A stretch of 52,475 nt of DNA, taken from NCBI GenBank assembly GCA_046753905.1, contig JBHHUU010000001.1:1-52475 (forward strand). The letters are read 5' to 3'. Position numbers and translations under genes: made by a program. The stretch is from Nitrospirota bacterium (GTDB taxonomy: Bacteria > Nitrospirota > Nitrospiria > JBHHUU01). A model generated the notes under the pieces. That model had not been told where the DNA came from and did not search any database. It worked only from the letters and a program-made list of their open reading frames with translations. This document shows positions 2,366 to 47,174 of the stretch, one piece after another (within the stretch, counting starts at the first letter, position 1; every line of letters begins with the position of its first letter).

Positions 2366-3217
2366 ATGAAGAGTAAAATAGTAATCCTTATTATTATAGT
2401 TTTTGTGCTATTTTTCCTTCCCCAGATACTTTTTATTGTGGACCAGACAGAATCAGCTATTGTAATACAGTTAGGAAAACCGATGAGAACTATTATGGAA
2501 CCAGGACTCCACTTTAAGACGCCATTTATTCAGGAGGTGATCTTTTTTGACAATAGATTGCTTGATTATGACGCCCTGCCAAAGGATATTATAACCAAGG
2601 ATAAGAAGACCCTTGTTGTTGATAATTATGCCAAGTGGCGGATAAAAGATCCCCTGAAGGTCTATCAGTCAGTAAGAGATGAAAGAGGGGCGCAGACAAG
2701 GTTAGATGATATTATCTATTCTGAGTTGAGGGTAGATCTCGGAGTTCATAATCTGATTGAGATAGTGTCAAAACAGAGATCAAGTATAATGAAAACTGTC
2801 ACACAGAGAAGCAGTGAAAAGGCTTCAGCCTTTGGTATAGAGATAACTGATGTAAGGATTAAGAGAGCAGACCTCCCCCTTGAAAATGAAAATGCAGTCT
2901 ATGCAAGAATGGAGACAGAGAGGCAAAGAGAGGCAAAGAGATACAGGTCTGAAGGAGGAGAGGAATCTCAAAAGATAAAGTCATTGGCAGATAAGGAGAA
3001 AGCGATCATATTAGCTGAAGCCTATAGGGAATCTCAGGAATTAATGGGGAGAGGTGATGCAGAGGCATTTAAAAAATATGCAGCCGCATATAAAAAAGAT
3101 CCCAGTTTTTTTGAATTTATGAGGACAATGGATGCCTATAAAGAGACTTTTACTCCTGGCACAACATTAGTCCTTACACCTGATTCAGAATACTTGAAAT
3201 ACCTGAAGAGAGATTAG
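2366..3217 (+). CDS. hflC: HflC-like SPFH/band-7 protein
   Basis: N-terminal TM helix and an SPFH domain (QTESAIVIQLGKP..., RIKRADLP). AGGAGG Shine-Dalgarno sequence 6 nt upstream. Paired with hflK. Confidence 0.85.
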   Translation: MKSKIVILIIIVFVLFFLPQILFIVDQTESAIVIQLGKPMRTIMEPGLHFKTPFIQEVIFFDNRLLDYDALPKDIITKDKKTLVVDNYAKWRIKDPLKVYQSVRDERGAQTRLDDIIYSELRVDLGVHNLIEIVSKQRSSIMKTVTQRSSEKASAFGIEITDVRIKRADLPLENENAVYARMETERQREAKRYRSEGGEESQKIKSLADKEKAIILAEAYRESQELMGRGDAEAFKKYAAAYKKDPSFFEFMRTMDAYKETFTPGTTLVLTPDSEYLKYLKRD

Positions 3218-3264
3218 GGTCTCACCGCAACCCTCTCCCAAATACGGATATTTGTTCTCTATCA

Positions 3265-3349
3265 GTCATCCTGAGAGGAGCGAAGGATTTGTTTTTTGGT
3301 GTCTTTCTTCAGTTTTTTAAAGCAGATCCTTTGTTTCACTCAGGATGAC
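3265..3349. repeat. REP-like palindromic element between two convergent genes; possible bidirectional terminator
   Basis: gtcatcctgagaggagcgaaggatttg faces cagatcctttgtttcactcaggatgac. The outer 11 bp are perfectly complementary and there is an inner aaggat/atcctt pair. Confidence 0.75.
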
Positions 3350-3451
3350 AACCTATTGGAATTACTACACTTTATTTAGTAATAAAAGTGTCTATAATTA
3401 TGCTGAATGGTTACGTCTGGCTTAGGATATTTTCTATCTCTGTTTTTGGGT

Positions 3452-3979
3452 TTAATGAATACCATTCTGTACTGCCTCCTCAAAATTGAATGGTCTGATA
3501 TTAAAGAATGGATTTTTTTTATTATGGCAGTTCAAACATTTCTTTTTGTCTGCCATCTGCAGACCAGCATCTATTGCATCCTGTTTATCAAACTGAGGAT
3601 TGTCTATCATTATCTTCATATATTCGTCTCCAGGCCCATGACACATCTCACAACCAACTCCTATCATGTCGGGACTTTCTCTCCTGTTTATAAATCCACC
3701 TGCCTTGCCAAATCCTGTGACATGACACTGAAGACACTTTGGAATTACTGTATAGTCTTTTAAGTGATCTATTCCTGCCTCTCTTTTCTCATCATGTTTC
3801 TCGAGCGGCTTCAGAGAATCAAAGGCATAGGCATGTCCTGTATTCTTCCATGCATTATATTCCTTTATATGACATACTTTGCATGCCCTTGAACCGACAT
3901 ATCCCTTTTTCTTTGCTGTGACAGTAATAGGAATAAATATAAAAGTTATTAGCAATAGATATGATAAAAACACCCTCAT
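3452..3979 (-). CDS. Tetraheme cytochrome c (secreted)
   Basis: Signal peptide plus four CXXCH motifs (CKVCH, CLQCH, CEMCH, CLNCH). Its start overlaps the upstream stop codon (ATGA). Confidence 0.85.
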   Translation of the reverse strand: MRVFLSYLLLITFIFIPITVTAKKKGYVGSRACKVCHIKEYNAWKNTGHAYAFDSLKPLEKHDEKREAGIDHLKDYTVIPKCLQCHVTGFGKAGGFINRRESPDMIGVGCEMCHGPGDEYMKIMIDNPQFDKQDAIDAGLQMADKKKCLNCHNKKNPFFNIRPFNFEEAVQNGIH

Positions 3980-5271
3980 CCCGAGAGATCCTTTTTTCTG
4001 ATAATATAAAGTTTCACAAATATAAAGAATATTATAACAAAAACCATCAAAATTACAATAAGATAATCTCTAAACCTATCTTTTAATTCATCTCTGAATT
4101 CTTGAACGGTCTTCAGTATATCTTCTGATATAGTGGCAGCCTCTTTGATATGTTGATTTATAGTCTCTACATTAAGGGAATGCGATGCTGATGGAATCAT
4201 AAGTATATGAGTTACTGCATCAGAATATTTATTATTAAGGTCTGTAATATTTCTACCTGCATCCTTTAATTCCTCTATTCCATTCTTTGCCTCTTCCAAT
4301 ATAGCCTTAGCCTCGTCTATATTCTTTTTTATCAGTGTAGCTACCTGATATTGGATAGAAGATGAATCATGGCATACTCCACAGTCACGTTCCTTATCAC
4401 CAATAAACTTATCCGGTGTAGGAGGGATATTTTTATGATTCCCGTGACATGTTATACATGTAGGGATACCTATTTGTTGAAGCATGCTGAAGTGCACACT
4501 TTTCTTGAAATTTTCCAGAACTACAGAATGACAATGACCACATACACCAGGTATATCAATCGGCGAAAGTGATCTCTCGCCATGCTTTCCATGACATGTG
4601 GTACAGTTAGGTGCTGCTAAAGGATTTTTATCTGAGAGCTTGCCATAGATGATCTTGCCATGTACGCCTTCTTTAAATAATTTAACCTGATCTGTAGGTA
4701 TATCATAGCCGTCCATTATCTCTTTTGAAGAATGACATTTCCCGCATGTATCAGGCAGATTTAATCTATAGACAGGGGAGTTTCTGTCAGTAACCTTTTT
4801 AATATCATGCCTTCCGTGGCAATCAATACATACGGCTGCTTTTTCATCTCTCTCTTCAGATAACAACCTTCCATGAACACTCTTTTTATAGTTTGCATAT
4901 TGATCAGTGGGGATATTATATTTGCCCATTTTATCAGCATTGGCATGACATTTAGCACATAGTTCAGGTATCATAAACCTTGTAGGCTTTCCTATAAAGC
5001 CTGCATCTTTACTCATTGCCTTTCTTGTAAGAAGAGTCGGATCTCCTCCATGACAATCAGAACAGATTATTCCTGCCTCTTTATGTATGCTCTTTTTCCA
5101 GTTTACCACAGGCATACGCAATCTCTTGGCTTTTAGCCCTTTATGACAGAGAACACAGCTATTCACCTCCACTTTTTTAAACTTGGCGATGCTATCATCT
5201 CCACAGGTAAAGAGTATAATCAGACTGATAAGAATTATTACAGAGTTTTTATGAGTTTTTAAAAGATTCAT
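3976..5271 (-). CDS. Nonaheme cytochrome c with a C-terminal membrane anchor
   Basis: Nine CXXCH motifs (CVLCH, CSDCH, CAKCH, CIDCH, CGKCH, CTTCH, CGHCH, CITCH, CGVCH). N-terminal signal with Cys (LFTCG). C-terminal helical region followed by a TM segment (YLIVILMVFVIIFFIFV). Confidence 0.85.
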   Translation of the reverse strand: MNLLKTHKNSVIILISLIILFTCGDDSIAKFKKVEVNSCVLCHKGLKAKRLRMPVVNWKKSIHKEAGIICSDCHGGDPTLLTRKAMSKDAGFIGKPTRFMIPELCAKCHANADKMGKYNIPTDQYANYKKSVHGRLLSEERDEKAAVCIDCHGRHDIKKVTDRNSPVYRLNLPDTCGKCHSSKEIMDGYDIPTDQVKLFKEGVHGKIIYGKLSDKNPLAAPNCTTCHGKHGERSLSPIDIPGVCGHCHSVVLENFKKSVHFSMLQQIGIPTCITCHGNHKNIPPTPDKFIGDKERDCGVCHDSSSIQYQVATLIKKNIDEAKAILEEAKNGIEELKDAGRNITDLNNKYSDAVTHILMIPSASHSLNVETINQHIKEAATISEDILKTVQEFRDELKDRFRDYLIVILMVFVIIFFIFVKLYIIRKKDLSG

Positions 5272-5314
5272 AAATAAGGATTTTCGTCTCCTAACTCCTG
5301 ACTGACTCCCAAAA

Positions 5315-6100
5315 TTATGAGATATAACCCAATATTGTAAAGAATATAAATCCTATTACCCCTAATATCCCGATAGTTGTTGCAATAGGCCTTTTTTTAG
5401 GATGTCTTTCTGGATTTTTATCAAAAAAAGGGAGTACAATAAGTAATAGTAAGAATATCATCTGCCCTACAACACCTATTACTTTAGGTGCCCATTGCCC
5501 CATAAATGTTAATACTTCAGATACCTTTAATATCTGATAAGAGGCAAGAAAAAACCACTCTGGTTTAATATGCTCAGGAGTAATTAAGGGATCTGCCTTG
5601 GGTTCCATAGGGGCAGGATTGAATATAACTAATGTGGAAATTATCCCTATCATAATAAAGACAACTATTATCTCTTTTAATGCGTGATCTGGCCAGAATG
5701 GAATTCCGCCCTCCTCTTCATATACAGGATTTAACAGATCTCTTGCAGATATAATCCCTACAGGTTTTCCATTGGCTGTAACCAGAAGATGTCTTATATG
5801 ATACCAGCTCATTGTCTCATTTGCCTTTACAGTGGATTCATTTTCATCAATCGCAGAGATAGGATAACTCATCACAGATTCAACAGATATTCGCGAGGGA
5901 GCAGCAGTCTTTTTTGTCATCACCTTTTTTACTATATCTACATCAGTGATAATGCCTACATATTCTTCCTCTTTCTTTACAAGTAGACTGTTTACCTTAT
6001 GCTGTTTCATGGTTGAGGCAGCACTCTTCACAGTCTCATTGTATGAGATAGAAAGGGGATTTGTAGTCATTACCTTTTTAACTGGAATTATAGGGATCAT
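5315..6100 (-). CDS. CBS-pair domain fused to cytochrome bc/b6f subunit IV (cytochrome b C-terminal part)
   Basis: Residues 1-125 form two CBS-like repeats (VMTTNPLSI...VGIITDVDIV and VMSYPISAI...VGIISARDLL). Residues 126-261 carry three TM helices and the subunit-IV/PetD signature PEHIKPEWFFLASYQILK. Confidence 0.8.
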   Translation of the reverse strand: MIPIIPVKKVMTTNPLSISYNETVKSAASTMKQHKVNSLLVKKEEEYVGIITDVDIVKKVMTKKTAAPSRISVESVMSYPISAIDENESTVKANETMSWYHIRHLLVTANGKPVGIISARDLLNPVYEEEGGIPFWPDHALKEIIVVFIMIGIISTLVIFNPAPMEPKADPLITPEHIKPEWFFLASYQILKVSEVLTFMGQWAPKVIGVVGQMIFLLLLIVLPFFDKNPERHPKKRPIATTIGILGVIGFIFFTILGYIS

Positions 6101-6107
6101 TTCTTTA

Positions 6108-6160
6108 GTTCCTTGTTAGTTCCTTGTTCTTGGTTATTAGTTCTTAGTTTTTTGTTCAAA
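6108..6160. repeat. Heptanucleotide tandem array in the cyt b / subunit IV spacer
   Basis: gttcctt gtta gttcctt gttcttg gttatta gttctta gtttttt gttcaaa (consensus GTTCTTN). Confidence 0.8.
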
Positions 6161-6198
6161 AATTTAAAACAAAGCGCTAAGGGTTTACCGCAAAATAA

Positions 6199-6936
6199 TT
6201 ACAGTGACTCAGAGATGCCCAGCCTCCTCAATATTAAAAAGTGCAATGCCAGAAGACCTACCATAATCCACGGAAGTATAATGACATGCAGGGCAAAGAA
6301 TCTTGTCAGGGTAATCTGACCTACATCAGGACCACCTCTAATCAGGTTTTTCAGCATTGGGCCTATCACAGGGACAGCACCTGGTATCTCTGTTCCAACA
6401 GTAGTAGCCCAATAAGATATCTGGTTCCACGGCAGAAGATATCCTGTAAAGCCAAATGTAAGTGTAAGACATAGCAAAATCACACCTACTACCCAATTCA
6501 GGTCCCTTGGAGGTTTATATGCACCATAGAAGTATATTCTTACCATGTGTATCAATATAGTAATCATCATTATATTTGCTGACCAGTGATGAAATCCTCT
6601 GATTAACCACCCGAACGGTGCATTATTGGTTATATGCACCACACTCTCATAGGCATGATCTATGGTTGGTCTGTAATACATTAAGAGCATTACTCCGCTT
6701 GTTGCATTTATTACAAATAGCAGGAATGTAATCCCTCCAAAGCAGAACCAGAAATTTACATGACCCGGCACAGGTTTTTTAAGAACCTTTTTAAGGGAAT
6801 CTCTTAACTCCAATCTCTCATCAAGCTCTCCATAGAATAATCCTGTTGCCAGAGTAAGCCAGTTAAGTATACCTTTGAGATTTACCTTTTTTTCAGTCTT
6901 CTTTGCTATATCATTTATCTCTTTTTGTCTAAACAT
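6199..6936 (-). CDS. Cytochrome b6-type subunit (N-terminal four-helix part of cytochrome b)
   Basis: FHHWSANIMMITILIHMVRIYFYGAYKPPRDLNW and TRFFALHVIILP blocks with the conserved heme-ligand histidines. Split-type b followed by a separate subunit IV gene. Confidence 0.9.
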   Translation of the reverse strand: MFRQKEINDIAKKTEKKVNLKGILNWLTLATGLFYGELDERLELRDSLKKVLKKPVPGHVNFWFCFGGITFLLFVINATSGVMLLMYYRPTIDHAYESVVHITNNAPFGWLIRGFHHWSANIMMITILIHMVRIYFYGAYKPPRDLNWVVGVILLCLTLTFGFTGYLLPWNQISYWATTVGTEIPGAVPVIGPMLKNLIRGGPDVGQITLTRFFALHVIILPWIMVGLLALHFLILRRLGISESL

Positions 6937-6987
6937 TCTCCCCTCACCCTTAACAATTATTTTCCTGTCTCTTGCGGCAGAAAATTT

Positions 6988-7101
6988 GAATAATGAATAT
7001 CGAATATGGTTACTGAGCCTGTCGAAGTAAGAAATGATATGTGTAGATGGAAAAGAGTGTAAATAAATTCATCATTCAATATTCCTTGTTCGATATTCAT
7101 T
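6988..7101. repeat. Inverted repeat built from heptamers in the Rieske / cyt b spacer
   Basis: The left arm is gaataat gaatatc gaatatg. aatgaatatcgaa (6992-7004) is the exact complement of ttcgatattcatt (7089-7101). The right arm overlaps the Rieske stop codon. Confidence 0.75.
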
Positions 7102-7573
7102 ACCCTATTATGATCTTATCATCTACAATTTTAGTTTCGTATGTAGGGAGGGGCTTAGGAGCTGGTCCTCCCAGTACATTCCCATTAAGGTCAAAAGAAG
7201 AGGCATGACATGGGCAAAACAGTATATTTTTATCAGGCTGCCACTCTACAATGCACCCTAGATGAGTACATATAAGTGAAATCGCATGGACATTATTATC
7301 AACCATAATTACACCTATTGGTCTCCCCTTTAATATTACCTTTTTTATCCTGCCTTCCGGAAGGATATCGGATAAAGGAAGACTTATCCTCTTATCATCA
7401 ACGCCTCCTCTTGTCTTTTCTGTAGGCCAAATATATTTCAGTCCTGTGTATCCTGCCCCTATTGATGCTATTATTCCCCATATAACTATGCCGATATTAA
7501 TTGTCTGCTCAAAAAAACTTCGTCTATCTATATTATTCGAACTGTTCTCTTCATGTTTCGTTATATCTTCCAT
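7100..7573 (-). CDS. Rieske [2Fe-2S] subunit
   Basis: N-terminal TM helix plus the cluster-binding boxes CTHLGC and CPCHAS. Confidence 0.9.
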   Translation of the reverse strand: MEDITKHEENSSNNIDRRSFFEQTINIGIVIWGIIASIGAGYTGLKYIWPTEKTRGGVDDKRISLPLSDILPEGRIKKVILKGRPIGVIMVDNNVHAISLICTHLGCIVEWQPDKNILFCPCHASSFDLNGNVLGGPAPKPLPTYETKIVDDKIIIG

Positions 7574-7736
7574 TAAAGTACCTCTTTAAAGTAAGACATT
7601 TTATTTATCTCCGATAAGTTTAGTTAAACTAACATCTTTGTTATAATATAAACATAGCACAAAGTCTGATAATTGTCTAATTCCCAAAAACTTGAGATAT
7701 AAATGGGAGAGGGTTGAGGTGAGGGTGAAATATTGA

Positions 7737-8672
7737 TCAGAAATGGAATCTGATGGTAATACTTGCCTCAACGCCATTTAATTCTAATGGAAGTTCTATT
7801 GGAACCCTGACTGTCCTTTCTACATTGCTGCTCGTATCTATACCAAAGGTAAGAGCATCACCTTCTTCAGGTGGTGGCGGTGGTGTAGGCTGACTATCAC
7901 CTGCCAGCGCAGGGACATCTACAACTGGCGGAAAGTTTGGCGGAAAGTACCTGTCTATCTTGACTTTTAGTGTCTTACCAATAACATAGTTGAGCTTAAT
8001 TCCAAAAGAAAGCCATTTTCTTAAAAAGTATTCTCCTCCCATTCCAATACGTGAAGTATAGGCTAAACCTCTTGCTTCTGTAGAGCTGACAGAAGCAAAA
8101 CTCAGACCAAATTCAGGTGCGACTACCTTTATTAGGGAATCCATTGTGAGATGAGACAGTGAAACACCTAAAAATTCAATATTGGTGAATAGTGTGCTAT
8201 GCTCTTTGTTATCAAACAGGTTATATCTCCAGCCTATCCAGAATTGATTTATTGTAATGTTATACGCTGCGCTTCTTGGCGCCAGGACAGTGTCATCAAG
8301 GGTAAGTATCGGCAGGTCATATAAGTCTTCTGATTTCCCCCTTCCTTCCCATATTGAAATTGTAAATGTCAGACTATGTCTCTCTTTTATCCTATATTGT
8401 GCCTCTATACCATAATTAAACTTCTCTTTTATGTTTGATACCGTGATGTTTCTATCGCTCCTATTCACATCTTTTATACTGCCGGGCAAAAGAAAATTAG
8501 GGTCCTGTTCTATTGCCAGACTACTATCATTAATCACCCTCCTTAATGTCTTCAGAGAGGGTTTATAATATCCCATTATATATCCTATGCTCCATCTTGA
8601 CTCCTCTCCATATACCTGTCCACAACAGAATATTAATACTATAAGAAATGACAAAAATAGCCTGATTTTCAC
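7737..8672 (-). CDS. Hypothetical outer-membrane beta-barrel protein
   Basis: Signal peptide, alternating beta-strand pattern, a PTPPPPPEEG insert, and a C-terminal ...RFHF typical of OMP sorting signals. No family recognised. Confidence 0.5.
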   Translation of the reverse strand: MKIRLFLSFLIVLIFCCGQVYGEESRWSIGYIMGYYKPSLKTLRRVINDSSLAIEQDPNFLLPGSIKDVNRSDRNITVSNIKEKFNYGIEAQYRIKERHSLTFTISIWEGRGKSEDLYDLPILTLDDTVLAPRSAAYNITINQFWIGWRYNLFDNKEHSTLFTNIEFLGVSLSHLTMDSLIKVVAPEFGLSFASVSSTEARGLAYTSRIGMGGEYFLRKWLSFGIKLNYVIGKTLKVKIDRYFPPNFPPVVDVPALAGDSQPTPPPPPEEGDALTFGIDTSSNVERTVRVPIELPLELNGVEASITIRFHF

Positions 8673-8693
8673 CCTCTGTTTTTTCTCCTTTGA

Positions 8694-8815
8694 AAATCCC
8701 CCCTTCCCACCTTACCAAGGGGAGATTTCCATATATCTCTTACTAAATGGTTTCCCCCTTTATTAAGGGCTATTTCTATAGATTCCCCCTTTGGAAAAGG
8801 GGGTTAGGGAGATTT
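8694..8815. repeat. Cluster of C-run/G-run hairpins
   Basis: aaatcccccctt (8694-8705) faces aaggggagattt (8717-8728). ccccctt (8785-8791) pairs with aaggggg (8797-8803). gggagattt recurs at 8807-8815. Confidence 0.7.
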
Positions 8816-8821
8816 AGCTTT

Positions 8822-10255
8822 TTATCTCAAAATTGTAATAGCTGCCTTTGCCTTATTTATGAAATCTGTGAAACTTTTTATCTTAATCAGACGCCTTATT
8901 ATATAAGATGGCCTGAAATAGAAAGTCATGTATGCCTTTTTAATAATACGCTCCAACTCCTCTTTTGGAAGATGAGGATATGAGATAAAAGACTCTTTTA
9001 TTGGATCTATTGCCCTGTATTCATCCTCTATCATCCAACCCTCTTTTTTTGCAATTCTATTAAACTCAGTATTCGGGAAAGGTGTACATATTGAGAATAA
9101 TACATAATCAACATTCAGGTTCTTTACCTTTTTTAATGTATACTCAATGGTCTCTTTTGTCTCAAGAGGAGAGCTTCCAAACAGTATATTCAGCTCAGGT
9201 TCAATATTATATTTATTAAGGAGATCTACTGCTATGTATAAATCTTCAATCTTCAGGTCTTTTTTTATATAATCTAATATCTCCTGTTTAAATGATTCAA
9301 TCCCAATATCTATATATCTGCATCCAGCCTCAGACATGGACTTTACCATCTCTTTGTCTGTCAGGTGATCTGCCCTTGCCAGACATGACCATTCTAATCT
9401 AAAATCCTTAATGCCATGACATATATCTATTACGCGATCTCTGCTGATTGTAAACTCATCATCAATAAATGAGAACGACCTGTACCCCTCTTCATATAAT
9501 ATCTTTATCTCATCAATAACATTGCCTGCTGATCTCAGTCTTATAGGAGGTTTGTTCTCCCTGTGCTTTCTATGCTCAATCTCACGGGCAAAACTCAAAG
9601 AATTAGGAACGCAATAATTACATCTATGAGGACATCCCCTTGAGGAGAGAACAGCAGTAAACGGTAATCTTGATAGTTTTGGGTTATTATATCTCTCTCT
9701 CCTTAAGATATCCCGTTTGGGAAATGGAAGTGTATCAAGATTATCAATAATATCCCTATAACTGTTAGAGACCTTCTCTTTCCCCTTAAGATATGTAATA
9801 CCTTTTATATCGGCTAAATCACCATTTTGCTTTAATCTCAGAACAAGCTCTTTTATTGTCTCCTCAGGTTCACCACGTATTACAAATGAATCCCTGTCTA
9901 CAAATATATTAGGATTGCTTGTTGGTTCAGTAGAGAGATAGATAAACTTTGCCGATGGCTTTATCTCTTTTATCAGTTCTCTTGCGATTAGATCGGTCTC
10001 TCTGGATAGAAACACCGTATAAAATATATAGATATCAGAATTATCTCTTTTAATAAAATCAATAAAACCCTTTCTATCAATACCATCTATTACGCAATCA
10101 ATAAAACATGTCTCACAGCCAGCCTCTTCTAAGACAGCCATTGAGTAAAGTATAAAGATATTAGGTTGGTAGTATATGCCATAGTTACACCCAAATATCC
10201 TCTCAGCAGAGAGTTTGCCATCAAGCGGCGGCGGGATTAAAAATGTTGTCTTCAT
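8822..10255 (-). CDS. B12-binding-domain radical SAM enzyme
   Basis: N-terminal cobalamin-binding-like domain, then CPHRCNYC (CX3CX2C) at about residue 208. Overlaps the upstream GT2 gene by 4 bp. Confidence 0.8.
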   Translation of the reverse strand: MKTTFLIPPPLDGKLSAERIFGCNYGIYYQPNIFILYSMAVLEEAGCETCFIDCVIDGIDRKGFIDFIKRDNSDIYIFYTVFLSRETDLIARELIKEIKPSAKFIYLSTEPTSNPNIFVDRDSFVIRGEPEETIKELVLRLKQNGDLADIKGITYLKGKEKVSNSYRDIIDNLDTLPFPKRDILRRERYNNPKLSRLPFTAVLSSRGCPHRCNYCVPNSLSFAREIEHRKHRENKPPIRLRSAGNVIDEIKILYEEGYRSFSFIDDEFTISRDRVIDICHGIKDFRLEWSCLARADHLTDKEMVKSMSEAGCRYIDIGIESFKQEILDYIKKDLKIEDLYIAVDLLNKYNIEPELNILFGSSPLETKETIEYTLKKVKNLNVDYVLFSICTPFPNTEFNRIAKKEGWMIEDEYRAIDPIKESFISYPHLPKEELERIIKKAYMTFYFRPSYIIRRLIKIKSFTDFINKAKAAITILR

Positions 10256-19767: not shown

Positions 19768-20697
19768 TTATCCATATACCTCCCGCAATATCCTGTCTCC
19801 ACCCTTAGACAGAATAGACTCTGCAAGGATAATCCCCATCTCTATGGCTTTATCAGGGTTACCCTTTATACCATCACGGATCAGCTCACTCCCATCTATG
19901 CCTGCCACCATACCTTCAAGATGTAATTTTCCATCTTTCATCTTTCCGTAACAAGCTATAGGCACCTGACATCCACCCTCCAGTCTCTGCAAGAATCCCC
20001 TCTCTCCTGTGACACATATCGCTGTCTCTCTATCCTCTAATATCTTTACTATTTGATTGACATCTTCATCACTTATACGGGTCTCAATCCCTAATGCACC
20101 CTGTCCTATTGCCGGCAGGCTTATCTCAAACGGGATATATTCTGTAATCTGATCCTTAAACCCTAACCTCTTTACGCCTGCGGACGCCAATACGATAGCA
20201 TCCAATCCCTCTGATATTAGTTTTTTGATCCTTGTATCCAGATTTCCTCTCAATGGATGGATATTAAGGTCATTACGATAGTATTTAAGTTGTGATGAGC
20301 GTCTGAGACTGCTTGTGCCTATCTTTGCCCCCTCAGACAGAGATGATAGTTTTAGACCACATCTAGATATAAGGATATCTCTCGGGTCTTCTCTAGGAGT
20401 AATAGCTGATATATGCAGCTCTTCAGGTATATCAACAGGGAGATCCTTCATGCTGTGGACTGCAATGTCTATCTCGCACCTTAACATAGACTCTTCTATC
20501 TCTTTGACAAAGAGTCCCTTTCCTCCTATCTTTGCAAGTGGAGCGTCTGTTATCCTGTCCCCTGTGGTCTTTATCTTTTTTAATGAGACCTGCATATCAG
20601 GGAAGTGTCTTTTTATCTCTGCCCTTACCCATTCAGCCTGCCAGATAGCAAGCCTGCTTCCCCTTGTTCCTATTATTAAATCCCGCTCTTTTTTCAT
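19768..20697 (-). CDS. hemC: Hydroxymethylbilane synthase (porphobilinogen deaminase)
   Basis: IIGTRGSRLAIWQAEWV N-terminus and overall HemC pattern. ATG 20697 is preceded by GAAAGG. The ORF track begins at TTG 20712. Confidence 0.9.
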   Translation of the reverse strand: MKKERDLIIGTRGSRLAIWQAEWVRAEIKRHFPDMQVSLKKIKTTGDRITDAPLAKIGGKGLFVKEIEESMLRCEIDIAVHSMKDLPVDIPEELHISAITPREDPRDILISRCGLKLSSLSEGAKIGTSSLRRSSQLKYYRNDLNIHPLRGNLDTRIKKLISEGLDAIVLASAGVKRLGFKDQITEYIPFEISLPAIGQGALGIETRISDEDVNQIVKILEDRETAICVTGERGFLQRLEGGCQVPIACYGKMKDGKLHLEGMVAGIDGSELIRDGIKGNPDKAIEMGIILAESILSKGGDRILREVYG

Positions 20698-20772
20698 AAA
20701 TATACCTTTCAAGTTTTACCTTAATAGTAAAGGAAGGGATGTCTGAGGAGATTATTGTCTTCTCCCCATTGT

Positions 20773-22113
20773 CTATTTCCCATTGTTCCGGGCTGTCGGC
20801 ACAATTATTTCACTATTATCTTTTTTATGGTTATGATGAGGAAGGTCTTTATCAAGATTAAATAGTATTCTTGCTGCCTCAATATACATATTCCCATTAG
20901 AAGAGTTTGCCTCCTGTTTCAATGCTACTAATGGGGCATGGAGTATCTTATTTATGATAGATGATGTTAATTCTTCTATAAGACTCTTTTCTCCCTGTTC
21001 CAATCTATCTAACTTTGCAAGAGTCTTTTCCAATTCTGCCCTTCTTATTCTCTCTGTCTTCTCTTTCAGTGCTATTATTGTAGGTACTACCTCAATGGTC
21101 TTAAACCACCTTGAGATAGTAACAATCTCATCTGCAATAATCTCTTCTGCCTTGACTACTTCACCCTCACGTTCTTTACGATTTGCATCTACAACCATTT
21201 TGAGATCATCTATATTATAAAGATATACATTATCTATGTTATTGACCTCTGGATCAATATTCCTTGGAACAGAGATGTCAATTAAGAATATCGGCTGATT
21301 CTTTCTATTCTGGATAGCCCTTTGAATATCAATATGTTTTATTAAATAATGAGGTGCGCCTGTTGAACAGATGATTATATCAGCCTTATAGATTTCATCT
21401 GAAAAAGTATCAAATTTTATTGCCTTTCCACTGAATCTATTTGCCAGTTTTAATGCCTTCTCATAATTTCTCGTTGTAATTAATATCTCCCTTACCCCGT
21501 CATCTATCAGGTGACGTGCAGTCAATTCCGCCATCTCTCCAGCTCCCAGTACAAGGACTGTCCTGTCATTCAACTCTCCAAATATTTTTCTGGCGAGTTC
21601 CACAGCAGCAGAACTTACTGAGACTGCATTTTCTCCTATCCTTGTTGTTGTGCGAACCCTCTTTGCAACAGATATAGCCTTTTTGAATACCTTGTTTAAG
21701 ATTACACCTGTAGCCTTGTGGGTCATTGCAGCCTCAAAGGCATCCTTTAACTGACCCAATATCTGCGGCTCTCCGACAACCATGGAATCGAGGCTTGACG
21801 CTACTCTGAATATATGTCTGATAGCATCATTTCCAGAATAATAATATAGATGTGACAGGAGTGTTTCCATAGTTACAGAAGAGTGATAGCTTACCAGAAA
21901 CTCTGTTATCCTCTCATATCCCTTGTCAGAGTCTGTTACAACAGAACATATATCAATTCTGTTGCATGTAGAGAGAATAAGTCCCTCCTGTATCTCCCTA
22001 TAAGACCTTAATCTGTATAAGACCTCTGATAATTCATCCTCAGGACAGGACAATTTTTCTCTTAATTCTACTGGTGCGGTCTTATGACTTAATCCTACAA
22101 CTATAATATTCAT
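20773..22113 (-). CDS. hemA: Glutamyl-tRNA reductase
   Basis: GLSHKTAPVELREK, STCNRIDI and a GAGEMAEL NADPH-binding motif. Confidence 0.9.
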   Translation of the reverse strand: MNIIVVGLSHKTAPVELREKLSCPEDELSEVLYRLRSYREIQEGLILSTCNRIDICSVVTDSDKGYERITEFLVSYHSSVTMETLLSHLYYYSGNDAIRHIFRVASSLDSMVVGEPQILGQLKDAFEAAMTHKATGVILNKVFKKAISVAKRVRTTTRIGENAVSVSSAAVELARKIFGELNDRTVLVLGAGEMAELTARHLIDDGVREILITTRNYEKALKLANRFSGKAIKFDTFSDEIYKADIIICSTGAPHYLIKHIDIQRAIQNRKNQPIFLIDISVPRNIDPEVNNIDNVYLYNIDDLKMVVDANRKEREGEVVKAEEIIADEIVTISRWFKTIEVVPTIIALKEKTERIRRAELEKTLAKLDRLEQGEKSLIEELTSSIINKILHAPLVALKQEANSSNGNMYIEAARILFNLDKDLPHHNHKKDNSEIIVPTARNNGK

Positions 22114-22121
22114 CTAATATC

Positions 22122-22937
22122 TCACACAAAGGAGTGCAATCCTTTAATAAGAAGATTGACTCCTATAAATGTAAATATCACACCTAAAAATCCTATAATA
22201 GCCAGATATGCTGCCTTCTTTGCCCTCCAGCCCACAGTTAAACGTCCATGTAATACTACTAAATAGAATAGCCATGTAACAAGTGAAAATGTCTGCTTTG
22301 GTTCCCAGCTCCAGTAAGAACCCCATGCATATTCTGCCCATACTGACCCGCTTATTATTCCAAGTGTCAGGAGTGGAAATCCGATAGAAATTGCCCTCTG
22401 ATTTAAATGATCTAACATATCAAGCGACGGCAGCTTATAATATAGTGCATTAAACCTCTTTGATTTAAGCAGACGCTCCTGAATAAGGTACATAATCCCG
22501 CATACAAATGCCATTGCAAATGCTACAATCCCTAGTAGAGATAGGGTGGTATGTATCCCAAACCAGCGGCTTTGCAGTAATGGATCCAATGCACTTACTT
22601 CGTTTGGCAGAATAGATGCTGCCATTATAAATATAAAAGCGAGCGGGAGGATAAAAGAACCTAAGATATGGATTTTGTATAGATATTCTATAATAAGAAA
22701 GACAAGTACCAATCCCCATGTAAAAAAAGAGAGAGCCTCATATAGGTTACTTAAGGGAATATGTCCAGCCTCCAGCATCCTTGTTGATAAGGCAATAGAA
22801 TGCGATATAAAACCAACACCTGTTACCCATAATGATGACCTTGAGATAAATTCTCTTTTGCTGACTACATATAAGAGAAAAAGGATTGCACCTGCAAAAT
22901 AGAGGATAACTGTTATATTAAAAAAAAAGAGATTCAT
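22122..22937 (-). CDS. CcsA/HemX-like cytochrome c assembly membrane protein
   Basis: Eight TM helices. A W-rich motif (WAEYAWGSYWSWEPKQ) resembles the heme-handling WWD motif. In the usual position upstream of hemA. Confidence 0.75.
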   Translation of the reverse strand: MNLFFFNITVILYFAGAILFLLYVVSKREFISRSSLWVTGVGFISHSIALSTRMLEAGHIPLSNLYEALSFFTWGLVLVFLIIEYLYKIHILGSFILPLAFIFIMAASILPNEVSALDPLLQSRWFGIHTTLSLLGIVAFAMAFVCGIMYLIQERLLKSKRFNALYYKLPSLDMLDHLNQRAISIGFPLLTLGIISGSVWAEYAWGSYWSWEPKQTFSLVTWLFYLVVLHGRLTVGWRAKKAAYLAIIGFLGVIFTFIGVNLLIKGLHSFV

Positions 22938-45812: not shown

Positions 45813-47174
45813 ATGCCAGTGGCAAAATTTGATCTGGTTCTGGACACAATAAAGCGATTTCTTCGTAAGGGTATCATAAATAAGATATCTAATATGATTA
45901 ATAAGATGCACCCTGCCGACATTGCCAAGGTAATAAGACACCTCTCATTGCCTCAGGAACGAAGAACAGTATTTGAGCTTATAAAAGATCTCCCTGTGAA
46001 GGCAAATGTTATAAGTGAAATTGATCCTTCAAGTATTGAAGACATATTAAATGAGATGTCTTCTCATGAAATTGTTATGATCTTCAAGGAGATACCCTCA
46101 GATGATGTGGCTGATATACTGGGCTATCTCCCTGAAGATAAATCTACAGAGATACTCCAGTTGATGAAGGTAGAAGATTCACAGGATGTTGAGGTATTGT
46201 TAAAGTATCATGAAGAGACTGCCGGCGGTATTATGACGACAGAATTCTTTGCCCTTCATGAAGAAACTACTGCCGGGGAGGCAACAAAAAGGCTTCAGAC
46301 TGATATTGATGCAGAGATGGTTTTTTATATATATGTAACAGATAATGAAGGCAAGCTGGTGGGTGTTGTCTCATTAAGGCAGCTACTATTGATCTCTCCT
46401 GATACAGCTTTAAGGAAATTTATGACAACAAATGTTATCAGTGTTGTAGTGGATACTGATCAGGAAGAGGTCGCAAGGCAGGTGGCAAGGTATAATATAC
46501 TTGCTATCCCTGTGGTAGATAAGGATAATATATTAAAGGGCATCATAACAGTAGATGATGTCATAGATGTTATCAGAGAAGAGGCAACTGAGGATATGTT
46601 AAAAATGGCAGGGACAGGGGAAGAGACACTAATGCTTGAGGCTTCAACTTTTATTGCTGCCAGATATAGACTGCCATGGCTGCTTACAAACCTGATTGGC
46701 GGTATATTCACAGCAGGATTATTATGGCTGTTCAGGTTAACTATTCGTGAGGTAATAGCGATTGTAAGTTTTATCCCTGTGATTAATTCAATGGCTGGTA
46801 ATATAGGACTTCAGTCATCTACAATTATAGTGCGCGGGCTTGCAACAGGAGGAATAGAATCAATCGATATCTATAAGGTCTTTTTAAAAGAACTGAAGGT
46901 AGGTGCATTAATGGGAATGATCTGCGGAACTATAGTAGGAATTGTAGCCTATATATGGCATGGTAATATAATGTTAGGTGTTGTTGTGGGAAGTTCAATG
47001 TTTATAGCAGTCGGTGTTGCTGCTACCATGGGAACTCTCGTTCCTTTATTCTTTAAGAGGTTTGATATAGACCCTGCCATCTCTTCAGGCCCATTTGTTA
47101 CTACTGTCAATGATATAACAGGGATTATTCTTTATTTAAGTTTAGCCACTTATTTATTAAATTATCTAATGTGA
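45813..47174 (+). CDS. mgtE: Magnesium transporter MgtE
   Basis: N-domain, CBS pair and a five-helix TM domain with GNIGLQSS and PFVTTVNDITG motifs. Confidence 0.9.
   Translation: MPVAKFDLVLDTIKRFLRKGIINKISNMINKMHPADIAKVIRHLSLPQERRTVFELIKDLPVKANVISEIDPSSIEDILNEMSSHEIVMIFKEIPSDDVADILGYLPEDKSTEILQLMKVEDSQDVEVLLKYHEETAGGIMTTEFFALHEETTAGEATKRLQTDIDAEMVFYIYVTDNEGKLVGVVSLRQLLLISPDTALRKFMTTNVISVVVDTDQEEVARQVARYNILAIPVVDKDNILKGIITVDDVIDVIREEATEDMLKMAGTGEETLMLEASTFIAARYRLPWLLTNLIGGIFTAGLLWLFRLTIREVIAIVSFIPVINSMAGNIGLQSSTIIVRGLATGGIESIDIYKVFLKELKVGALMGMICGTIVGIVAYIWHGNIMLGVVVGSSMFIAVGVAATMGTLVPLFFKRFDIDPAISSGPFVTTVNDITGIILYLSLATYLLNYLM

Follow-up and report, generated by a model that had tools for sequence, protein, structure and literature searches.

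A CBS pair fused to subunit IV of a b6f-like Rieske/cytochrome b complex in uncultured Nitrospirota: a candidate allosteric module beside the quinone-reduction site

The 52,475-nucleotide stretch of DNA analysed here (the window; positions 1 to 52,475 of contig JBHHUU010000001.1, GenBank assembly GCA_046753905.1, from a Nitrospirota bacterium) contains a Rieske/cytochrome b operon in which the gene for subunit IV (SUIV) begins with a region encoding a complete tandem CBS pair. The original prediction had correctly placed this gene at 5315-6100, as a single open reading frame (ORF) of 261 amino acids (aa), and gave no strand; the ORF is continuous, its junction is uninterrupted in the homologues, and it lies on the minus strand. 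The fused gene, its parts and the other genes of the operon are the following:

5315-6100, minus strand: CBS-SUIV fusion gene, a 261-aa ORF with an ATG start, matched by Pfam CBS (twice) and Cytochrom_B_C
5726-6088, minus strand: CBS pair (Bateman module), residues ~5-125, from Pfam, AlphaFold2, Foldseek, conservation and the ratio of non-synonymous to synonymous substitution rates (dN/dS)
5702-5725, minus strand: acidic flexible linker VYEEEGGI, residues 126-133, from AlphaFold2 confidence and the conserved junction
5672-5701, minus strand: segment P134-F-W-P-D-H139-A-L-K142-E143 on the cytoplasmic (n) side, leading into helix E, from invariant or near-invariant columns and alignments
5315-5698, minus strand: membrane part of subunit IV with helices E, ef, F and G, from PF00032, AlphaFold2, hydropathy and PDB sequence matches
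7100-7573, minus strand: Rieske [2Fe-2S] subunit, 157 aa, from Pfam and NCBIfam, with a CTH...CPCH motif
6199-6936, minus strand: four-helix cytochrome b6, 245 aa, from Pfam and NCBIfam, with His116/130, His217/232 and C65-F-G-G (CxGG)
3976-5271, minus strand: nonahaem c-type cytochrome, 431 aa, with nine CxxCH motifs, matches to Pfam multihaem families and a C-terminal membrane anchor
3452-3979, minus strand: tetrahaem cytochrome c554-like protein, 175 aa (PF13435, E=9e-27), with four CxxCH motifs and a 4-nt overlap with the preceding gene

The genes follow one another in the order Rieske, cytochrome b6, CBS-SUIV, nonahaem cytochrome c and tetrahaem cytochrome c, which makes the fused gene the third of a Rieske/cytochrome b operon, as had been proposed. 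The closest solved structures to the cytochrome b6 are cyanobacterial b6 proteins (E=3e-68), and the CxGG motif that it carries accompanies haem cn (Dibrova et al. 2017, PMC5600118). The 431-aa nonahaem cytochrome, which is kept after SUIV both in a related fused operon (L034) and in operons with an unfused SUIV (L009-L011), is likely the electron acceptor subunit. The b6 similarity, the CxGG motif and the neighbouring multihaem genes together indicate a b6f-like quinol:cytochrome c oxidoreductase with multihaem acceptors. A Shine-Dalgarno-like AAGGA is found about 9 nt 5' of the ATG of the fused gene, within a tandem direct repeat (ACAAGGAACTA ACAAGGAACTA) that occupies positions 6105-6130 of the minus strand. 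In a promoter and terminator scan of positions 3200-9000, the counts were not above the shuffled expectation.

Both halves of the fused protein were recognised by profile hidden Markov models. PF00571 (CBS) matched the 261-aa protein in two stretches with 77.7 bits (E=8.2e-22; gathering cut-off 24), in agreement with the earlier assignment of the first 125 residues to a tandem CBS pair, and PF00032 (Cytochrom_B_C) matched residues 168-259 with 62.9 bits (E=3.7e-17; gathering cut-off 20.7). The motifs VMTTNPLSI...GIITDVDIV, VMSYPISAI...GIISARDLL and PEWFFLASYQILK were all found in the protein, whose identical database entry (P0001) is named 'CBS domain-containing protein [Nitrospirota bacterium]'. 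The membrane half matches residues 28-143 of b6f subunit IV in PDB sequences. The description of this half as a canonical three-helix subunit IV was upheld with regard to the PF00032 match, the three helices and a PEWF motif, but not at the level of the equivalog TIGR01156 (cytb6_f_IV, cyanobacterial and plastid PetD), for which the score was 49.8 bits with a cut-off of 127.05. Scores also fell below the cut-offs of the Geobacter ExtP/ExtQ equivalogs (NF040969 / NF040970), with values of 252.8 vs 290 for b6 and 18.6 vs 150 for SUIV. As judged from these scores, the membrane half is a b6f-like member of the subunit IV family, but no orthologue of PetD or ExtQ. The N-terminal half belongs to the CBS-pair family on the grounds of sequence, fold and motif. 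Its best PDB sequence matches (9zni, 9znf and 9zng) were considered as a link to cytochrome b and discarded, since these entries hold no b6 or SUIV relative and the similarity is that of CBS domains in general. The chains concerned (4, 6 and 7) are 'CBS domain-containing proteins' of 270-281 aa, and their numeric identifiers suggest that they belong to large assemblies.

An AlphaFold2 model of the fused protein, built from a 49-sequence alignment, showed a confident CBS pair at residues 5-123, with a predicted local distance difference test (pLDDT) of about 90 and the secondary structure b1-a1-b2-b3-a2 present twice. The linker had low confidence (pLDDT <50 at residues 129-132), and was followed by helices E (135-160), ef (182-200), F (204-225) and G (237-260), with the PEWY-type Qo motif of the ef loop reading P180-E-W-F183. 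In Foldseek comparisons, the CBS part was superposed on stand-alone CBS pairs with a root-mean-square deviation of about 2 Å over about 120 residues (range 1.8-3 Å), and the target-normalised template-modelling (TM) scores against solved CBS pairs were 0.7-0.82. The F-G loop FDKNPERHPKKRP holds five Lys/Arg residues, and by the positive-inside rule this basic loop places the N-terminus in the cytoplasm. A cytoplasmic N-terminus is the known topology of b6f subunit IV, and the orientation given in the original prediction is therefore borne out on both grounds.

The ribose-site motifs of the two CBS domains read G49-I-I-T52-D-V-D55 and G115-I-I-S118-A-R120-D121, and T52, D55, S118, R120, D121, R103 and H104 are invariant in the fused family. 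In CBS motifs the ribose is contacted through a Thr/Asp pair, with Thr or Ser at the end of b3 and Asp in the first turn of a2 (PMC6429129). Conservation in the family centres on these canonical ligand-site residues and not solely on surface or interface positions. A literature search on NAD(H) in the neighbouring structures 3fhm, 2rc3 and 4fry returned nothing usable.

The fused gene comes from a single contig of a metagenome-assembled genome (MAG), a source that leaves room for an artefact: a CBS gene and petD could have been merged by a frameshift, by chimeric assembly or by wrong ORF calling. When 5.8 billion protein clusters were searched, 33 were returned that had a length of about 260 aa, both Pfam domains and 44-58% identity; a second search added two more, to give 35, and five further distinct fused sequences were found (L045, L047, L057, L059 and L073). 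At least 40 distinct fused homologues, 41-58% identical, are thus available from many independent assemblies, and all of them align collinearly across the junction PVYEEEGG-IPFWP(D/N)H, whose EEEG-IPFxP part continues the N-terminal tail of unfused subunit IVs. There was no sign of the frameshift or assembly join at 5720-5730 that the original prediction had proposed to check. Over 20 unsaturated pairs, the CBS half had a median dN/dS of 0.088 and the membrane half one of 0.059, indicating that both halves are under purifying selection. Furthermore, a separate SUIV would have no start codon, as V126 is encoded by GTA and the first Met past the linker lies inside helix E. Among the related database entries, P0192 has the look of a chimera, which is a point in favour of an artefact. 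However, the junction runs uninterrupted through at least 40 divergent sequences that stem from many studies and assemblers, and this, together with the selection on both halves and the missing start codon, reduces the probability of an artefact to practically nil.

P0192 itself (188 aa, from a 700-bp ENA contig, and a cluster representative in the 50% library) joins a CBS pair of the kind found in the type-3 loci described below to the last b6 helix. Its reading as an unsplit cytochrome b with a CBS insertion was rejected, since it is a probable chimera with a PGA(I/V)P micro-homology at the join. A Logan assembly (SRR29324593) reproduces the ORF of the window exactly; its contig is 100% contained in the window and probably derives from the same reads, so it was rejected as an independent confirmation.

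The position at which the CBS pair is attached was examined through the n-side segment P134-F-W-P-x-H139-x-L-K142-E143, which varies little or not at all among relatives, whether fused or unfused. In HMMER alignments this segment aligns ungapped to IPFHPYYSFKD of chicken cytochrome b, with K142/E143 at the positions of K228/D229. In b6f numbering, obtained by alignment offsets, E143 falls one residue before PetD Phe40, which we take to be the residue of the Phe-to-Tyr mutant. By the same kind of offsets, K142/E143 correspond to positions 251/252 of Rhodobacter cytochrome b, the Lys/Asp pair of the quinone-reduction (Qi) site of bc1 (PMC5001787). A Glu at the position of the Phe-to-Tyr mutant is the axial ligand of a low-potential haem cN, with a His nearby (PMC12954380), and haem cn sits between b6 and the N-terminal helix of subunit IV (PMC5600118). 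The alignment with the bc1 Qi pair and this location of haem cn place the tether of the CBS pair, as read from the alignments, about 10-15 residues from the pocket formed by the n-side quinone site (Qn) and haem cn.

In the mechanism that we propose, a complete Bateman module has taken the place of the short cytoplasmic N-terminal tail of SUIV in a b6f-like, haem-cn-containing (mena)quinol:cytochrome c oxidoreductase. The acidic flexible linker of 8-10 residues ties the CBS pair to the PFWPxHxLKE segment, a putative part of the Qn/haem cn pocket, and an adenosine-containing ligand (AMP/ADP/ATP, possibly NAD(H), S-adenosylmethionine (SAM) or cyclic di-AMP (c-di-AMP)) would bind in the inter-CBS clefts. 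The module would probably pair with that of the second SUIV in the obligate dimer, and a ligand-dependent conformational change, as in MgtE, CNNM/CorC, ClC and OpuA, would alter the access to the Qn/haem cn site or its geometry, in such a way that the turnover or the directionality of the complex would be tuned to the metabolic state of the cell. In known systems, the Bateman modules of two protomers form a disc whose ligand-dependent twist reaches the membrane domain via a connecting element (PMC6429129). By analogy with them, we consider it somewhat more probable than the contrary that the CBS pair responds to an adenosyl ligand and acts allosterically on the Qn/haem cn side, with ligand binding, dimerisation and an effect on catalysis as its expected properties.

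All source names attached to the fused proteins are those of Nitrospirae/Nitrospirota MAGs, mostly from groundwater, aquifer or sediment, and in the databases they bear no other name than 'CBS domain-containing protein' or 'hypothetical protein'. The fusion was detected in eight GTDB species representatives by means of peptide patterns taken from the window protein, which miss the divergent type-3 members. When 1.84 billion 50%-identity representatives were searched exhaustively with HMMER, using a profile of the fused proteins, one full-length representative was recovered (P0027), and no other protein with both halves, and hence no candidate for an independent CBS-SUIV fusion in another lineage, was present among the best 150 of them. 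The CBS-SUIV family is therefore a narrow one, known from uncultured Nitrospirota.

Trees were built by neighbour-joining and have modest support. In the tree of the SUIV half, the fused proteins form one clade, with a support of 45 for all 31 and of 99 for 29 of them, and the window protein, P0021, P0002 and P0032 are its basal branches. Since these basal branches are operon-embedded members, a single fusion event inside a Rieske-b6-SUIV-cytochrome c operon, in the ancestor of a clade of uncultured Nitrospirota, is the most likely origin, and purifying selection would have kept the fusion since then.

Three gene contexts were distinguished. Type 1 has the order Rieske, b6, CBS-SUIV, nonahaem cytochrome c and c554-like cytochrome, and comprises the window, L034 (58% identical and from an independent run) and L042, which ends after the fused gene. 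Downstream of the type-1 operon of P0002, L034 (5569-8376) carries an NfnAB / sulfide-dehydrogenase-like pair (DHODB_Fe-S_bind + Fer4_20/Pyr_redox_2) as well as a gene for hemerythrin, neither of which adjoins the operon of the window. Type 3, from sediment Nitrospirota, consists of cytochrome c, Rieske, b6, CBS-SUIV and a class-I multidomain cytochrome c beside a sigma-54 two-component system (L045-L049 and L059; b6 also lies upstream in L044 and L057). The Rieske, b6, SUIV order of the window is thereby found in L034, L042, L045, L047 and L059. In type 2, the crown group and the most abundant one, the fused gene follows tig, clpP and clpX and precedes genes for a FixO-like cytochrome c, two U32 proteins and SCP2, and no Rieske or b6 gene was found within 6-10 kb. 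The Rieske/cytochrome b operon setting originally described therefore holds for the window, but most family members have the gene outside such an operon.

In the sample series of the type-2 loci, a b6 that is 70% identical to that of the window is encoded in a locus with the order cytochrome c, Rieske, b6 and hemerythrin and no subunit IV gene. On the simplest reading of these co-occurring metagenome contigs, a type-3-like operon would have been divided in type 2 into two loci that complement each other. In L033 (7787-10853), L038 (7403-10346) and L043 (1558-5683), the genes after the type-2 CBS-SUIV gene encode a FixO-like monohaem cytochrome c, two Peptidase_U32 proteins and SCP2. The trio of two U32 genes and SCP2 resembles UbiU/UbiV/UbiT of O2-independent quinone hydroxylation, and if this likeness holds, the type-2 neighbourhood would be one of quinone biosynthesis.

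The separation of SUIV from b6 in most members bears on a purely structural role, in which the CBS pair would form a dimer beneath the membrane and help to assemble the SUIV/b6 dimer or keep it stable, for instance offsetting the separate loci of the two subunits. An assembly aid could help in these members, CBS pairs usually form disc-like dimers (PMC6429129), and the Rieske/b complex is an obligate dimer. However, the basal members, the window included, are still in the operon, which implies that the fusion predates the relocation; in addition, unfused relatives assemble without a CBS pair, and conservation is concentrated on canonical ligand-site residues. We regard a solely structural function as quite unlikely.

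In L132 (4175-9381), and also in L133 and L134, the SUIV-less cytochrome c-Rieske-b6 locus has cdaA (diadenylate cyclase), ybbR and glmM directly before it and the hemerythrin gene after it. A variant in which the CBS pair is a c-di-AMP receptor, as in DarB/CbpB and OpuCA, would tie respiration to osmotic/potassium and cell-envelope signalling rather than to energy charge. The cdaA-ybbR-glmM genes directly upstream in L132 and L134 fit such a variant, as do a weak sequence match to the CBS domain of OpuCA (5ks7, E=7e-5) and the existence of DarB, a c-di-AMP-binding CBS protein (PMC9293649). The adjacency of cdaA, however, occurs in one lineage only and may be due to chance, DarB was not among the PDB sequence matches at E<=1e-3, and no cdaA was found among the window ORFs scanned, all of which makes this variant very unlikely in our estimation.

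The best stand-alone relatives of the CBS half are CBS pairs of 123-145 aa with 38-52% identity, many of them from Nitrospirota, and some share even the C-terminal tail (PIYxDxEG; ARDLLQPIYLDREGW vs ARDLLNPVYEEEGG). The gene for one of them, P0195 (45% identical), heads an operon (L050, 6550-11711) in which it is followed by genes for a 592-aa Fer4_20/Pyr_redox_2/2x[4Fe-4S] flavoprotein, Rieske, cytochrome b, a SUIV-like protein and a multihaem cytochrome c. L058 (238-5282) is arranged in the same way, with a clear SUIV, and in both operons the CBS proteins have 130-135 aa and the flavoproteins about 600 aa. A divergent NfnAB-like pair is additionally present in L050. In L078 (964-6405) and L091 (1211-6363), genes for Rieske, a 345-aa cytochrome b, a 469-aa multihaem cytochrome c and a 469-aa protein with no Pfam match are followed by one for a 269-aa protein with a C-terminal CBS pair, which closes a Rieske/b cluster encoded on one strand and represents a third mode of association between a CBS protein and such a cluster. 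These split forms are supporting evidence for a functional link of this CBS lineage with Rieske/b complexes, and not proof of descent.

The operons L050 and L058, headed by stand-alone CBS relatives and bearing flavoprotein genes, agree with a different role, that of a docking or adaptor platform for a soluble n-side redox partner of haem cn, such as an NAD(P)-linked Fe-S flavoprotein or a ferredoxin. The NfnAB-like pair after the type-1 operon of L034 points in the same direction, in anammox complexes an NAD(P) oxidoreductase has been described on the n side, close to haem cN (PMC12954380), and CBS modules are able to bind proteins, as in CNNM-PRL (PMC6429129). On the other hand, no gene for an NAD(P)/FAD Fe-S flavoprotein was found in the window operon or among the 35 largest other ORFs scanned (nine ORFs <250 aa were left out), types 2 and 3 have no adjacent flavoprotein gene, the published anammox complexes have no CBS component, and the invariant ribose-site residues point to a retained ligand pocket. 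A mainly adaptor function is unlikely in our view.

Several observations weigh against the CBS pair being an adenosyl-responsive allosteric module of the complex. The predicted TM score of the AlphaFold2 model was 0.47, and with a linker pLDDT below 50 the docking site of the CBS pair is not reliably given. The identity of the ligand cannot be read from the sequence, adenosyl binding being suggested by the ribose-site motifs and by other CBS proteins, and the closest structural neighbours of the CBS part are mostly uncharacterised proteins from structural genomics. In type-3 pairs the dN/dS of the CBS half was higher (0.4-0.8), at low dS values that may bias it. In the metagenome scan, a Rieske/b cluster was found near only 3 of about 72 stand-alone relatives, and the neighbour-joining tree of the CBS half is not resolved (support 20), so the operon-linked stand-alone CBS genes could not be supported as sister to the fused CBS halves. 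Finally, closely related unfused SUIVs work without a CBS domain, which makes of this domain an accessory one.

Comparison with known systems places the fused protein between two groups. With PetD and the SUIVs of b6f-like menaquinol:cytochrome c oxidoreductases (Firmicutes, Heliobacteria, Thermodesulfobacteriota and Planctomycetes) it shares helices E-G, the PEW(Y/F) motif and the position after a Rieske and a four-helix CxGG b6, and its membrane half is 57-65% identical to unfused SUIVs of 143-147 aa. It differs from them in that an N-terminal tail of about 10-20 residues is replaced by a 125-residue CBS pair and, with respect to b6f, in that the acceptor is a nonahaem plus a tetrahaem cytochrome and not cytochrome f. 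With MgtE, CNNM/CorC, ClC channels and OpuA/OpuC it shares a cytoplasmic Bateman module joined to the transmembrane domain of a dimeric protein. In those proteins, Mg2+/ATP, ATP, c-di-AMP or ionic strength changes the conformation of the CBS module and gates the membrane part (PMC6429129), whereas here the membrane part is a subunit of a redox enzyme, with no homology beyond the CBS fold, and its regulation is hypothetical. The same fold is found in the stand-alone CBS pairs ST2348 (2ef7), PH0107 (2yzi), ATU1752 (3fhm), MJ0922 (2p9m) and Rv2626c HRP1, as well as in PAE2072 with AMP (2rif), MJ0100 with SAM/methylthioadenosine (MTA) (3kpb) and cyanobacterial CBS-CP12, with 20-33% identity across this set. 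In CBS-CP12, too, a CBS pair is joined to a protein that regulates energy metabolism; the stand-alone pairs, unlike the fused protein, are soluble and mostly have no known target.

The anammox Rieske/b complexes (Kuste4569-4574 and Kustd1480-1485) resemble the window operon in combining a b6-like cytochrome b, a SUIV-like protein and multihaem cytochromes. Their haem cN is ligated by Glu, with a His nearby, and they have an accessory cytoplasmic module on the n side (PMC12954380). L050 and L058 match this composition and add a CBS gene. The window operon differs from the anammox ones in having no NAD(P) oxidoreductase, and the anammox complexes have no reported CBS domain and a SUIV with five helices. 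The n side of subunit IV also serves as a signalling interface in chloroplasts, where its stromal N-terminal region acts in the activation of the Stt7/STN7 kinase during state transitions. In that case the complex signals outward to a kinase, whereas the CBS-SUIV sensor would signal into the complex.

Other genes of the window were also recorded. A 311-aa ORF at 7737-8672 (minus strand), directly upstream of the Rieske gene, has no Pfam match, a signal-peptide-like N-terminus and a Pro-rich stretch (PTPPPPPEEG), and could encode an outer-membrane or periplasmic partner of the multihaem cytochromes. Genes for HemC (porphobilinogen deaminase), HemA (glutamyl-tRNA reductase) and a CcsA-type cytochrome c assembly protein are clustered at 19768-22937 (minus strand), about 14 kb from the operon, which fits a cytochrome-rich lifestyle. 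At 45813-47174 (plus strand) the window encodes an MgtE Mg2+ channel with a CBS pair of its own (PF01769, PF03448 and PF00571), a classical CBS-gated membrane protein that, coming from the same genome, could act as an internal comparator.

To our knowledge, the control of Rieske/cytochrome b complexes is thought to be exerted by substrate availability, membrane potential and redox poise, and not by dedicated ligand-binding domains. Searches covering 8 million papers and preprints returned no published account of a Rieske/cytochrome b complex that carries a CBS domain or is encoded together with one, and neither the phylogenomic survey PMC5600118 nor the anammox paper PMC12954380 mentions CBS. 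The earlier statement that no example of such a fusion had been described thus stands as far as the literature is concerned, with the amendment that the fusion is not a single occurrence but a conserved Nitrospirota family. Several dozen proteins labelled 'CBS domain-containing protein' are, as a consequence, subunits of a respiratory complex.

Altogether, the data suggest a so far undescribed small-molecule switching of a b6f-like complex. A more far-reaching possibility, which we put forward tentatively and hold to be somewhat improbable as it stands, is that this is the first Rieske/cytochrome b enzyme (complex III / b6f-type) with a built-in allosteric domain for ligand binding; the quinone-reduction/haem cn side would then be gated directly by an adenosyl ligand of the cytoplasm (energy charge, NAD(H) or a second messenger). 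If this were true, the complex could switch between a Q-cycle mode and one in which electrons are diverted on the n side, or could stop in an energised cell. A conserved Bateman module about 15 residues from the Lys/Glu pair of the Qn site provides a concrete case for direct metabolite control of a Q-cycle enzyme, CBS-SUIV gives a handle on the events at haem cn, whose function is still debated, and the split forms carry the question over to the proposed NAD(P)H-generating complexes of anaerobes.

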